NCBI RefSeq assembly: GCF_006345805.1
Contig: NC_042999.1
Coordinates: 71,052,001-71,116,000 of the forward strand
Direction of reading: 5' to 3'
Source: Octopus sinensis
Taxonomy: Eukaryota
Length of the DNA stretch: 64,000 nucleotides
Shown here: piece by piece, positions 21,966 to 32,275 of the stretch
How positions within the stretch are numbered: the first letter of the stretch is position 1
Layout of the letters: the number at the start of each line of letters is the position of its first letter
Notes under the pieces: generated by a model
Told to the model about the DNA's origin: nothing
Seen by the model: the letters and a program-made list of their open reading frames with translations, nothing else
Database searches by the model: none
Translations under genes and position numbers: made by a program

Positions 21966-22132
21966 ATCTATCTATCTATCTATCTATCTATCTATCTATC
22001 TATCTATCTATCTATCTATCTATCTATCTATCTATCTATCTATCTATCTATCTATCTATCTATCTATCTATCTATCTATCTACCTACCTACCTACCTACC
22101 TACCCAACCATCCATCCATTCATACATCCATC
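21966..22132. repeat. (TATC)n-(TACC)n-(TCCA)n compound microsatellite
   Basis: Directly visible. Confidence 0.95.
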
Positions 22133-22134
22133 TG

Positions 22135-22583
22135 ATGTTTCAAAAAATGATGGGTGAATGTAGCATGGATTGCACGTGAGAATGACGGAGCCAGCTTGAG
22201 CATAATCCTATGAACCAAAAGAGAAAAAAAAACCAAAAAATAAAAGGAAACAAAGAGACCCACTTACTGTAATGTATTCTCTTTTTGTATGACACTACTA
22301 CCCAAGGTTCCCGTGGTCTTTTCCCTAGGCTTTTCTATTCACGGACAAACCTAATCTGTTTTCCCTTTTTACATTGACATTTCTGTGATACACGATCCCT
22401 ATTGATCGACCCCACTTTTTTTCCCTTTTGATCGGAATTCCCCCGCCTCTTTTTTACCCGATCCCTTTTGATCGGAATTCGTCCCCCCTTTTTCTCCCTT
22501 CTCTCCTTCCCAAAAAGAAAAGCTCTACCTTGTATTTTGTCCCTTCTGTGTTTAGCCCTGCGTAGCCAATAAAGAAATCTATC
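22135..22583 (+). mobile_element. 5'-truncated Tx1-like copy (ORF2 end plus 3' UTR)
   Basis: gatgggtgaatgtagca...cttgagcataatcctatga matches 29732-29796; shared UTR motifs; ends aataaagaaa-tctatc. Confidence 0.85.
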
Positions 22584-22788
22584 TTGATTGGTTTGGATTT
22601 TAATGACCGCGATTATCAACTCCGTAACCTCCAGCGTGTATTTGGCTGGTAAGGTACTGTAAATATTCTGCTGAATATTCCTAGTTCATGAACCAGTCAA
22701 CAAAGTAAAGCAGAAATAGATATTCCAAGGGAATAGTTCACGTCACATAATGAAATGGCTGGTGATTGGCATATTAAATATTTAATTT

Positions 22789-22930
22789 CTATCTATCTAT
22801 CTATCTATCTATCTATCTATCTATCTATCTATCTATCTATCTATCTATCTATCTATCTATCTATCTATCTATCTATCTATCTATCTATCTATCTATCTAT
22901 CTATCTATCTATCTATCTATCTATCTATCT
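22789..22930. repeat. (TATC)n microsatellite at the 5' junction of the Tx1 element
   Basis: Directly visible. Confidence 0.97.
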
Positions 22931-23134
22931 CTGTCTATGGACGTGCTGTCTCTTCGACTCCGAAGGTAATTGTTTATTTTGACTATTTATAGCCCAATTT
23001 TTGTGTACATTTTTGTAAATAAGTTGTGTAAGGCACCCAACTTTCGTTTGAGTGCTTTTCCAAGGAGGAATTCGCCCCTAGGGGCAGTTTCAACCCCATT
23101 TAATTTTTGTAATTTCTTTCTAGACATTTTCAAA

Positions 23135-28200: not shown

Positions 28201-28711
28201 CCAAAGATCCCTGGCCTGGCAGTGCTATCGAGAAGCATTACCTGTTCGGGATAAGCTCTACAGACACGGTTCCAGACACACTGGACCGACTTGCCCGAGA
28301 TGCGGTCAGAGCGACGAAACCGTTCTGCACGCACTCGTGCAATGTCCAACCATTTCAGACCTGTGGGCTTATGCCGAACGGCTGCTGTCACGTGTGGGAC
28401 GAATCCGCCTATCGGCCGAGTCTATCGTGAGAATTGCTCCGCCCCCTTCCCTCAACCGGGAAGGCAAGGCAGTTTTCATCGTACTGGTGGCCATGGTGAA
28501 AGAATGTGTGTGGTGGACTCGAGCGAAAGAATTAGAGACAAACACTTACCTCTCTGGCCAATCGCTCATCAACTTTTTCAAGTACCACTTGAAAAGGAAG
28601 GTGAGAATGGAGAGGGAAGTTTTGTCTCGCGAAAGATTAAAAAAAAGATGGGTGAATGTTGCAAAGATGGTGCGTGCTAGTAACGAAACCATTTTGAGCA
28701 TGATCCTGTAG
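25275..28711 (+). pseudogene. Tx1 ORF2: AP endonuclease, reverse transcriptase and C-terminal Zn motif; single -1 frameshift at ~27030
   Basis: GSINVRG, ISET, VYAP, GDWN, SYLD and TDH (APE); KSPGLDGLP, FRPITLLN, DQSKAFDRV, RQGCPLS and AYADD (RT); CPRCGQSDETVLHALVQC. Confidence 0.93.
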
Positions 28712-29005
28712 ATCGTAAAAAAGAAAGAAAGAGAGCATTTTGATCTCATGTGGTTATTTCCTCCCTGACTGAGGTTCCCGTGGTCTTTTCTGTAGGCTTT
28801 TCTTCCCACGGATGAACCCAATCTTGTTATATCAATGTTTATATCATTATTTCTGTGATACACGATTTCCTTTTTTTTCCTTCTCTCGATCCCTTTTGAT
28901 CGCAATCTTACATTTATTTTCTTTTTTTCCACCCTCGAAAAGAAAAGCTCTGCATTTGTATTTGTCCCCTCTGTATTCAGCCCTGTGTGGCTAATAAAAG
29001 AAAGT

Positions 29006-29098
29006 TATCTATCTATCTATCTATCTATCTATCTATCTATCTATCTATCTATCTATCTATCTATCTATCTATCTATCTATCTATCTATCTATCTATCT
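29006..29098. repeat. (TATC)n between two Tx1 copies
   Basis: Directly visible. Confidence 0.97.
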
Positions 29099-30272
29099 CA
29101 CCGCGAGTGTCGCGTTGCTCTCAAGCAACTCTGCCGTCCCGGGTCGACCTTGAGTGACTTCAACACAACCAAAGCTTTCTATAGGGGATTAGTGGAGGGG
29201 AGGTACGACGACGAGCTCGGGGCGAACCTGGACGTCGACGAGGAGTACCTGACCCGCCTGTTCAGGACGACTTTCAGGCCAGGGCCCATGGACAACTTCC
29301 AGAGATCCCTGGCCTGGCAGTGCTACCGAGAAGCGCTACCCGTTCGGGATAAGCTCTACAGACACGGCTCGAGAAACACGGGGCCGACCTGCCCGAGATG
29401 CGGTCAGAGCGACGAAACCGTTCTGCACGCACTCGTGCAGTGTCCAACAATTTCCGACCTGTGGGCTTATGTCGAACAACTGCTGTCACGTGTGGGACGA
29501 GTCGGTTTATCAGCTGAGTCTATCGTCAATATTGTCACGCCTCCTTCCTCCAAACGGGAAGGAAGAGCTATTTTCATCATCCTTGTGGCTATGGCGAAAG
29601 AATGTATCTGGTGGACGCGTCTGAAAGGATTTTCCTCTCTGGTCAATCTCTCATCAACTTCTTCAAGTACCACTTGAAAAGGAAAGTGAGAGTAGAGAGG
29701 CAAGTTTTGTCTAGCGAATGTTTTAAAAAAAGATGGGTGAATGTAGCAAGGATGGCACGTATGAATGACGAAGCCACCTTGAGCATAATCCTATGAACCC
29801 AGAAATTGAAAACAGAGGGTTACCCACTGGCAAACAAATGTGGTAACATATAACAATATTGACCAATATTGACCAATATTGACCGTGGTCTTTTTCGTAG
29901 GCTTTTCTTCCCACGGAAAAACCTTACTTGCTTTCCCCTTTACACCATATATCATAACACTGTGATACACGATCCCTATTGATCGTTCTTTTTTTCCCTC
30001 TTCCCCTTTTTTCTTCTTTTTTCATTTCTCTTTCCTTTTGTTCCTTTTCCTTTTCTTTTTTTTTCTTTTTATTCTTTTTATTTTATTCAATTTTTTCTTC
30101 TTTTTTTTGTTTTTGTTCTTTCTTCCCTTTTACGATCCATCTTGATCGAAAACCTACGCCACCCCCTTTTTTTGTTTCTTTTGTTTTTTGTTCTCTTCAT
30201 CCCCCAAAAGAAAAGCTCTACCTTGTAACTTGTCCCATCTGTGTGCAGCTCTGTGTGGCCAATAAAGAAACT
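29099..30272 (+). mobile_element. 5'-truncated Tx1-like copy of a different subfamily
   Basis: Begins caccgcgagtgtcgc, homologous to 28001 onward; same C-terminal CCHC region with a deletion near 29630; own 3' UTR ending aataaagaaac, then (TATC)n 30273-30390 and (TAGC)n. Confidence 0.92.
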
Positions 30273-32275
30273 TATCTATCTATCTATCTATCTATCTATC
30301 TATCTATCTATCTATCTATCTATCTATCTATCTATCTATCTATCTATCTATCTATCTATCTATCTATCTATCTATCTATCTATCTATCTAGCTAGCTAGC
30401 TAGCTAGCTAGCTAGCAATCTAAGTAATTAATTTCCTCAATACCACATAGATCTGATCACAAGCAAGCACTATCTCTAAGAAAATCCAATCTGTGGAGAC
30501 AGAGGGTTTCACATGAGCGTTATCTGATTTGATGGTATCAAGTTAACGACAGGAGTAGGCTTGTAGTTTTTACGAACAGTAGGAATACATGCTAAGATTA
30601 CTTTTCTTGGGAGCTGAACAATTCTTAACGAGGGACTTCAAGCGTATTACATCTCTTTGTTTGAGCCCATTCTCTTTTTGAATCTTTCTTTTATATTTTA
30701 CTGTCAAGATAATAGGACGGAAGTGTTTCGGAGTCACTAGTTCGCCTAATGTTGGAGAAGGTAATACTCGACTTCGCAGCATCCCTCCTCCTTAGATATT
30801 GTTGGTGATGTTGAGGATGATGCAACGTTATTAACCTCTATTTCTTTCCTCTGGCTATCCTCTGCCCAGTGTCCAGTAGTATCGTGGAAGAAGAAGTAGC
30901 AATAACAGGAGCAGCGGTCACAACTTCCGTCTGTAGCTTTCAGCTGATACATCCTCTTCTTATTTTAGTTTGTCGAACTGTAATGAATAAGTTCCAGGAT
31001 TTTTTGGAAAAGTTTCTCATTATAGATCTGCACTCTGCCGAGGCGCACATTCATCTCCCAGGCAGCAAAAATTAGCGATGTCGCCAGTTGATAATAACTA
31101 GTCAATAAAATGAACGGATATTAATATTTTCGATTCAAATATTGCTACCACTGTATACTCTCCCTATTAATGAAGTTCGTTTATTCATGTACTCAGTGAC
31201 CACAACACCTCCCTCCCTCTCTGTGTGTCCAACTACCTATCGACTTGTCTACCTTTCTACATACACACAACACTTACACACACACATACACACACACATG
31301 TATATATTAATTACTCACATGCAAACGCTTTGATGTAAATTTAAAGTCGCAATATACACACAAAATATATCTATAACTATGAGGTTCATGTTTGCATGTA
31401 TCAAATCTGTCTACTTGTCTATTTGCATGTCAATCTGTATAAAGATACGCTCCGAAAAATCTTGAATTTATACATACATCCACATGTATACACACGTAAT
31501 ACAATTTCTTATACACGATCTCCACCGCAACCCAACCAATATATATATTCATTTATATATACATACATACATACATATATATATATATATTATATATATA
31601 TATATATATTATATATATATATATATTACACATACATACATACATACATATATATATATATATATATATATATATATATATATATATATATATATATGTA
31701 TATATACATAAACATGTGTGTGTGTGTGTGTGTATGTGCATATACGTGTGCGTGTGTGTATAAGTGAGTAGGTGTATGTCTTATCAAATAAACCTTGCAA
31801 AGTTTTCCTTATATGTACTGATTCTCAAAAAGACAAAACAAAACGAAAAAATTACAGTAAATTAGACTTACATACAGAGACAAAGACAGACAGACAGAAA
31901 TATTCATAAATAGCCGTATAACCCATTGTTCGTAATCAATGTACTATTCAGATTTAAAGGAATACGTTTTGAAGAGTTAGAAAAAATAATGATGCTTCGA
32001 ACCGATAAACAAACATAACGACGAGTCCAAACAGAGAAAAAAAGAAGCTCATTCGATTTTCTTCAATATATGTCAAAAGAAAAACAAAAAAAAAGGAAAA
32101 ACAAACTTCGAACATACTATATTGATATTTCTTTAGTGCATCATTCTTAAGAGTACTAGTTATCAACCGACTAAATGCACTAATATATATATTGCTTATA
32201 TGCATATATGTGAAAATGTGCGATTATAATATAATTGGCTTTCTTCATGAGTATTTAATATACGGATATTTATAA

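Follow-up and report, generated by a model that had tools for sequence, protein, structure and literature searches.

Among the retrotransposons without long terminal repeats (non-LTR) of the Tx1 clade, families have been described that target the microsatellites (TC)n, (TTC)n and (TTCC)n/(TTTC)n (PMC4494074, in the parts available). The same parts attribute target choice mainly to the endonuclease, and a second insertion into a target left intact has been described as one way in which tandem copies arise (bioRxiv 10.1101/158386, in excerpt). In Octopus vulgaris, L1-Tx1 elements account for 80 families and 56 Mb, 13 of the families being recently active (PMC13282606, in part). In this study, we report the analysis of a 64,000-nt stretch of Octopus sinensis DNA (contig NC_042999.1, positions 71,052,001 to 71,116,000, forward strand), hereafter the window, which carries three copies of a Tx1-like non-LTR retrotransposon lying among (TATC)n tracts. 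Locally, the preference of these copies for TATC has good support; specificity across the genome is more than three copies at a single locus can show. We consider it likely that some real preference for TATC exists, by either of the mechanisms weighed below, and we lean, with little more than even confidence, towards a Tx1-like family that favours (TATC)n for insertion and returns to the tract that it regenerates.

Three diverged copies in the same orientation had been noted in a preliminary description of this DNA, and the blastn and tblastn coordinates and identities confirmed three distinct homologous copies on the + strand. Copy 1 (c1; 22135..22577, +), delimited by blastn and alignments, is a 443-bp 3' stub that retains about 70 nt of the end of open reading frame 2 (ORF2) and the 3' untranslated region (UTR), and its terminal sequence is AATAAAGAAA. 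A compound microsatellite of (TATC)29, about six TACC units and degenerate CATC units (21965..22134, +) lies 5' of it, and a 7-nt TATC-phase remnant, TCTATCT (22578..22584, +), lies 3'. Copy 2 (c2; 22931..29003, +), an inactive and probably full-length element, is preceded by (TATC)35 (22788..22930, +), with no element 3' end before the tract. The GT plus (TATC)23 that follows it (29004..29098, +) is at once the 3' tract of c2 and the 5' flank of copy 3 (c3; 29099..30270, +). The latter is 1.17 kb long and consists of the C-terminal third of ORF2 and the 3' UTR; its 5' truncation point corresponds to c2 position 28001, inside ORF2, its reading frame has one frameshift near 29635, and its 3' UTR has an expanded T-rich stretch. 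The 3' tract of c3 is CT plus (TATC)29 grading into about six TAGC units (30271..30416, +). Between c1 and the tract before c2 are about 200 bp (22585..22787, no strand assigned) with no significant second match in the window; this segment, situated between two long TATC tracts, may itself have been inserted into a single older tract and divided it.

Searches across the window by blastn and tblastn detected no fourth copy with ORF2 or 3' UTR. A candidate fourth 3' end, AATAAAGAAACTT at 50042, was rejected, as its local alignments scored no better than background (138/261, 174/255 and 183/261 random windows matched its score). A decayed ORF1-only remnant at about 47700-48480, with 28-32% identity to the element ORF1 and a reverse SINE-like copy (SINE, short interspersed nuclear element) after it, has neither ORF2 nor a recognisable 3' end nor TATC; it was too distant to be counted either way. 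The conserved 3' UTR blocks of the three copies folded no better than shuffles (six folds, z -0.9 to 1.6), three folds of relatives gave z -1.95 to 0.0, and no RNA structure is claimed.

The terminal sequence of all three copies is AATAAA(A)GAAA, with no poly(A); directly after it stand TCTATCT (c1), GT+(TATC)23 (c2) and CT+(TATC)29 (c3). It had been stated that the 3' ends run into TATC with no poly(A), which holds for all three, the c1 tract being 7 nt long. Perfect (TATC)35 and perfect (TATC)23 stand directly before c2 and c3, respectively, so that the further statement that each 5' junction directly follows TATC is borne out for these two copies and fails for c1, where a degenerate 54-nt extension of the repeat intervenes. 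TATC solely at 3' ends with random 5' flanks, the pattern named beforehand as speaking against targeting, is not what the locus presents: perfect TATC adjoins two of the three 5' junctions, and at the third there is a degenerate extension of such a tract. Different truncation points had been ascribed to all copies; c1 is a 3' stub and c3 is truncated in ORF2, but c2 is probably full length, judging by a 330-nt leader that precedes ORF1 as in the full units of relatives. The TATC before c3 cannot be the 5' end of c3 itself, which through truncation begins within ORF2 and still lies directly against a perfect tract. The tract 29006-29097 (92 bp) serves both the c2 3' flank and the c3 5' flank; therefore only two 5' tracts, those of c1 and c2, have no element upstream, and the junctions, described as independent, are so in these two cases only. 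The bases ATCT can be read as the last of all three 5' flanks, their placement being flexible through microhomology.

Across three diverged subfamilies, neither the motif nor its polarity has changed at either end. By blastn, c2 and c3 are 83% identical over 707 nt, c1 and c3 70% identical over 308 columns, and c1 and c2 66% identical over 279 columns, the c1 values applying to its 3' UTR. Differences between c2 and c3 fall at codon positions 1, 2 and 3 in the numbers 17, 17 and 47 (177 codons); being mostly at third positions, they indicate that c2 and c3 diverged as working lineages, that is, as different once-active subfamilies.

This divergence bears on a reading in which the element targets its own 3' end or the reverse transcriptase (RT) jumps between templates, TATC being a self-encoded tail and the 5' tracts being the tails of neighbouring or lost copies. 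It would explain the c2-c3 junction fully, and head-to-tail arrays of a sister lineage (below) lack microsatellites. However, the tracts at 21965 and 22788 have no remnant of an element 3' end before them, and c2 and c3, 17% apart, are unlikely to stem from one template-jump event. We regard this explanation as quite unlikely.

The frequency of TATC in the window is informative as to whether the 5' tracts could be coincidental. Tracts of at least three TATC units occur at six places, four of which adjoin the element, and no tract of at least three GATA units occurs on the + strand of the window. The chance that one insertion would meet, in the correct polarity, a TATC tract independent of any element was 0.0046 under a strict definition and 0.0066 allowing 55 bp, and the joint chance for c1 and c2 was about 3e-5, before correction for the after-the-fact choice of window and motif. 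The (AT)n class is commoner (41 tracts, 1,408 bp) than the AGAT class (7 tracts, 712 bp) and is unused by the element, and the (TC)n/(GA)n tracts of the window carry no element copy. Perfect microsatellites of 2-4-nt units make up 4.5% of the window, which is AT-rich. Without any targeting, a self-encoded TATC tail would expand by slippage, and the 5' tracts would be coincidences in a microsatellite-rich, element-tolerant region; RTE tails do generate microsatellites between target-site duplications (TSDs; PMC2887409, in the part seen), and the 4.5% cover, the post-hoc selection and the weak c1 flank fit this account. It needs, however, two independent events, each with a probability of about 0.005-0.007 and with motif and strand both correct, plus a third insertion into the 92-bp tract, and we judge it very improbable. 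Of the proposed targeting of TATC, a local preference is thus upheld (two tracts, with a chance of about 0.5-0.7% each), and the notion of junctions from three independent events is not. As a separate observation, the eight perfect segments are all TATC when the + strand is read, and none is GATA; the two places without an element are among them, and the numbers are too small for significance.

The target is not a small-RNA gene, since neither Rfam nor ARAGORN gave one: ARAGORN found no tRNA, and Rfam over 19000-36000 gave 47 matches, all below the gathering score and nearly all microsatellite-driven miRNA models. A weak U6-like match at 35831-35933 (30.9 bits against a gathering score of 44; E 2e-4), after a SINE-like copy, is possibly a decayed U6 retrocopy.

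Copy 2 is a dead copy. Its ORF1 (23260..25208, +) lies in at least four reading-frame pieces, with CAA-rich low-complexity parts, an RRM-like region and one CCHC knuckle. The zf-CCHC match in Pfam (E 9e-4) is slightly below the curated cut-off, the intact ORF1 of one relative gives the same domain above it (E 5e-5), and the Pfam search of ORF1 returned no Transposase_22 match. Atlas look-alikes of ORF1 are CCHC / ZCCHC3 RNA-binding-domain clusters (0.88-0.92), a lead only, and tblastn aligned it with the ORF1 of relatives at E 7e-12. ORF2 (25275..28711, +) encodes an APE-type endonuclease (apurinic/apyrimidinic endonuclease-like), an RT and a C-terminal zf-RVT (PF03372, E 6e-13; PF00078, E 1e-19; PF13966, E 1e-7), and has a single frameshift, within the RT near 27030. 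The N-terminal APE, the RT and the C-terminal CCHC-type region make up the architecture of the L1 group and Tx1, and ORF1 combines the CCHC knuckle and RRM-like region of the Tx1 type. In the Tx1 clade, ORF1 is of this RRM-like and CCHC-knuckle type, unlike the Transposase_22 type of vertebrate L1.

Among named proteins, the best match to the endonuclease half of ORF2 was one from Argonauta hians (55% identity, 80% of the query), which suggests an octopod-like host; protein searches returned a distinct group at about 40-72% identity before falling to about 30%. A quick RT tree was built from 62 rows out of 208 covering the region, with neither an L1 outgroup nor Repbase references; three named proteins were left out for insufficient coverage. 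In it, c2 pairs with P0003 (100) as sister to 31 more rows, and all 33 hold together at 99 in the Shimodaira-Hasegawa-like approximate likelihood ratio test (SH-aLRT), apart from the named vertebrate rows. Two protein matches (P0232, P0251) are named 'transposon TX1 149 kDa protein', and the window clade joins the group of P0232 at SH-aLRT 90 in this outgroup-free tree. In a C-terminal tree of 18 rows, one group (95) unites c2 and c3 with five close proteins, and a separate one (95) contains ten sister-lineage rows. The element is likely to belong to the Tx1 clade on the basis of domain architecture, ORF1 type and named neighbours.

The catalytic motifs of the c2 endonuclease are intact in sequence. 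Its predicted structure (predicted local distance difference test, pLDDT, 89) matches the fold of the L1 endonuclease best (template modelling score, TM, 0.80; for TRAS1, 0.68), and L1 endonucleases are also its best solved-structure matches by sequence. A hairpin loop of this endonuclease fold tunes target specificity, as the titles of PDB 2v0r/2v0s echo. The hairpin segment is 16 residues long in the window copy, as in the three endonucleases closest to it, and 18-20 residues long in 30 of the 32 sister-lineage rows listed, a difference in length compatible with a changed endonuclease specificity.

A family that seeks TATC could produce this arrangement as follows. The orientation is constant, TATC always lying 3' of the element end, and the APE domain would nick the GATA strand. 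The freed end would then serve as primer, reverse transcription starting from the end of the RNA immediately beyond AATAAAGAAA, so that no poly(A) would be copied, and pairing with a few co-transcribed UAUC units would probably help priming. The second-strand cut would leave TATC at the 5' side, whether the copy was truncated or not. Each insertion would preserve its target, allowing later subfamilies to re-enter the same tract, as the c2-c3 tandem suggests, and slippage would afterwards lengthen or decay the tracts. The endonuclease as the component giving specificity, this order of events and its generality across the genome are conditional parts of the proposal.

Relatives were sought by a scan of genome contigs, which returned 41 loci (L001-L041) on 16 contigs of one record set (CAXXMW01, titled uncultured Arenicella); the array proteins were placed relative to the RT tree through identity to its rows (best matches 93.5-98.4%), and were entered directly in the C-terminal tree. 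With arrays of LINEs (long interspersed nuclear elements) and microsatellite-bearing flanks, these contigs are evidently mis-binned eukaryote DNA. The binning favours tandem loci. As an instance of bin contamination, at least 16 eukaryotic LINE-array contigs are involved, which reach 94 kb and hold intact ORFs. The sister units measure 6.4-6.9 kb, and their ORF2, open for 1,158-1,181 residues in the nine loci translated, is 42-45% identical to the window ORF2. Element sequence fills 37 of the 41 loci from end to end, one has a 63-nt gap and three start in non-element DNA; no opposite-strand match was seen at any of the 41. The non-element flanks of three related loci have only microsatellites in common with the window, and so give no indication that the two hosts are close. 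All 51 distinct readable 3' ends, one further match at a locus edge being excluded, terminate at AATAAA, lack poly(A) and have another unit after them. Stopping at the polyadenylation signal and inserting again where the site is preserved are therefore characteristic of the whole lineage; TATC is not. Tandem arrays had been predicted for the element and are seen in the sister lineage, but there without a microsatellite, so array building does not need TATC.

Motifs of the GTAAGT splice-donor type recur in the array units, in the 5' leader, just past ORF1 and just past ORF2 (L009 8730-8740, 9475-9485 and 11770-11782; L001 4203-4212; L025 8733-8742). They point to splicing or U1-binding control as a possibility for these poly(A)-less elements.

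Several observations weigh against a TATC-seeking family. The evidence comes from one locus with three copies and two independent 5' tracts, in a window and for a motif chosen after the fact, and two of the six TATC places in the window (33304-33354, 53697-53910) carry no element. At c1, 54 nt of TACC/CATC-degenerate repeat separate the copy from (TATC)29, the 24 nt directly before it match TATC at 67%, a value reached by 3.6% of 7,908 background 24-mers, and the 3' tail is only 7 nt, followed by about 200 bp of unique DNA. A TSD cannot be delimited within a microsatellite. No TATC tract occurs at any of the 51 sister 3' junctions, where the sequence after AATAAA instead falls into nine unrelated spacer groups without a consensus; the sister lineage gives no support for a conserved sequence-reading endonuclease, and two of its rows (P0176, P0198) likewise have the 16-residue loop. 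In addition, the one SINE-like copy that shares the tail of the element (20235..20422, +) is followed by another SINE-like copy and not by TATC. The final 40 nt of this copy align with the element 3' end (79.5% identity over 44 columns, E 7e-5) and terminate in register with it. The SINE-like repeat has about ten copies in the window, and the element-like tail is found in this copy only. The match suggests a LINE-SINE partnership between the element and this repeat, and it shows that a shared tail alone does not imply TATC; the same-tailed repeat may have been moved by a different Tx1 family. It forms part of a head-to-tail SINE-like pair (20235-20615) with a 20-nt duplication at the joint.

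The targeting may be real and yet be set mainly by the RNA. Transcripts would then run 15-20 nt past AATAAA, and this flank would pair with the nicked primer strand; an ancestor beside a TATC tract would have gained a UAUC tail able to pair with any nicked GATA strand, the endonuclease itself being loose. The sister spacers are as long as the stretch that usually separates AATAAA from the cleavage site. In R1Bm, read-through target sequence reportedly improves insertion. L1 priming needs at least four matching terminal bases (PMC3649969, in the part seen). The target in the sister lineage differs from locus to locus, in nine spacer groups, yet is reused exactly, also before truncations. In the largest group, a 17-nt spacer is kept before two distinct 5' truncations (three junctions, one of them duplicated) and before two 5' ends bearing extra bases. 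The spacer follows the host flank at two of the three array starts (L004, L013) and partly so at the third (L027). A Mantel test over 19 full-length junctions showed no link between the upstream 3' ends and the downstream 5' ends (rho 0.09, p 0.19), as separate insertions would lead one to expect. The SINE-like copy with the shared tail lies in a different target. We read the 17-nt spacer as target-derived in the largest group; elsewhere it is indistinguishable from the element's own 5' end.

Other features of the arrays argue the opposite way. The variants of the spacer go with the 5' end of the downstream unit (rho 0.56, p 0.0003) rather than with the 3' UTR of the upstream one (rho -0.07), which rules out copying of the spacer along with the 3' end and is compatible with pairing without proving it. 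One truncated junction occurs twice identically (L025); DNA-level duplication therefore also builds arrays, and both it and re-insertion are at work in these arrays. All of them belong to a single mis-binned set that favours tandem loci, and the tail pairing is putative. Taken together, targeting set by the RNA is a possible but unlikely explanation. Its extended form, in which the 15-20-nt co-transcribed flank would set the target throughout the lineage, the TATC branch would be a genome-wide GATA-microsatellite specialist, the sister would re-insert locally and grow satellite-like arrays, and the RNA tail rather than protein evolution would switch specificity, appears to us unlikely.

The window has further repeats. 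Members of the SINE-like family described above, with a different tail and several of them in tandem pairs, lie at 19187-19585, 32312-32709, 35660-35823, 44859-45037 and 48873-48992 (minus). A mariner/Tc1 transposase ORF occupies 4350-5249 (Transposase_1, E 9e-23), and translations point to a decayed mariner-like piece on the minus strand near 46590-47490. At 10591-10680 and 12143-12232 are two-copy repeats of 43 bp, mutual reverse complements around symmetric (TA)n and A/T-rich tracts; this long inverted repeat is perhaps a foldback element. The (TCTG)n(TATC)n tract at 33249-33730 is broken by a 220-bp piece, the start of which resembles a mariner-type terminal repeat. Downstream of a 55-unit TATC tract is a near-identical local duplication (53911-54300 and 54881-55152; 273 nt, 98.9%), and further repeated (AT)n blocks run to 56096.

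Among described systems, Kibi and Koshi of teleosts and the crocodilian Tx1 elements found in (TTCC)n/(TTTC)n are likewise APE-type non-LTR elements of microsatellites, with units ending in TC or C (PMC4494074, as far as the available text goes). Kibi and Koshi had been cited at the outset as specific for (TC)n and (TTC)n, in agreement with that text. Compared by target descriptions, the present motif differs in containing A, and the host is an invertebrate. The window copies are flanked by (TATC)n and not by (TC)n or (TTC)n; the element would work like Kibi and Koshi and, by target, is a member of neither. A sequence-specific Tx1 family is recognised in the accessible text of PMC4494074 when more than 20% of its genomic copies are flanked by one target type; here, all three local copies fit one type, at one locus. 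Tx1L of Xenopus, Keno, Tx1-Mar/SINEU-3 and Tx1-1_ACar are also target-specific members of the clade, their targets, in the sources as excerpted, being transposons, U2 genes or telomeric repeats (the last for Tx1-1_ACar, PMC10088271) rather than TATC. For SINEU-3, tandem insertions with a TSD enclosed between them have been described, and SINEU elements have poly(A) tails, which the window copies do not (PMC4494074, in part).

A parallel to the tandem arrangement is found in the R1 arrays and transposable element (TE) dimers of Drosophila (McGurk and Barbash), in which the target is preserved and duplicated between units with distinct 5' truncations, and tandems later expand by unequal exchange (bioRxiv 10.1101/158386, in excerpt). 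This model fits both c2-c3 and the sister arrays, except that R1 has one fixed target in ribosomal DNA and the sister lineage nine unrelated spacers. Dong at (TAA)n, Togen at (TG)n and some Hero families are microsatellite-specific non-LTR elements as well (PMC4640811 and PMC2887409, both in part), and Dong-R4 is abundant in octopus (PMC13282606, in part); they differ in their restriction-like endonuclease, clades and motifs. RTE, CR1 and L2 elements with self-encoded microsatellite tails share the lack of poly(A) and the simple repeat at the 3' end. Their repeat lies between TSDs, at the 3' end only (PMC2887409, in the part seen), whereas here it also flanks 5' junctions; TATC stands 5' of a truncated copy and the endonuclease is L1-like, which sets the element outside those groups.

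A search of full-text literature, with subscription journals and Repbase Reports outside its scope, found no TATC- or GATA-specific Tx1 family and no report of such arrays in molluscs; the per-family target figure of PMC4494074 (Fig. 3) lay outside this check and could already list TATC. Microsatellite targeting by Tx1 elements is itself known, and what would be new here, if confirmed genome-wide, is the TATC motif together with a mollusc host. Such confirmation would help to explain the shared flanks and clustering of GATA/TATC microsatellites in genomes of this kind. A target programmed by the tail would make the element a naturally re-programmable LINE, relevant to tools for site-specific RNA-templated insertion. 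One lineage here contrasts a TATC-associated branch with a sister that reuses arbitrary 17-nt sites, which makes the shares of endonuclease and RNA-primer pairing in LINE target choice directly testable.

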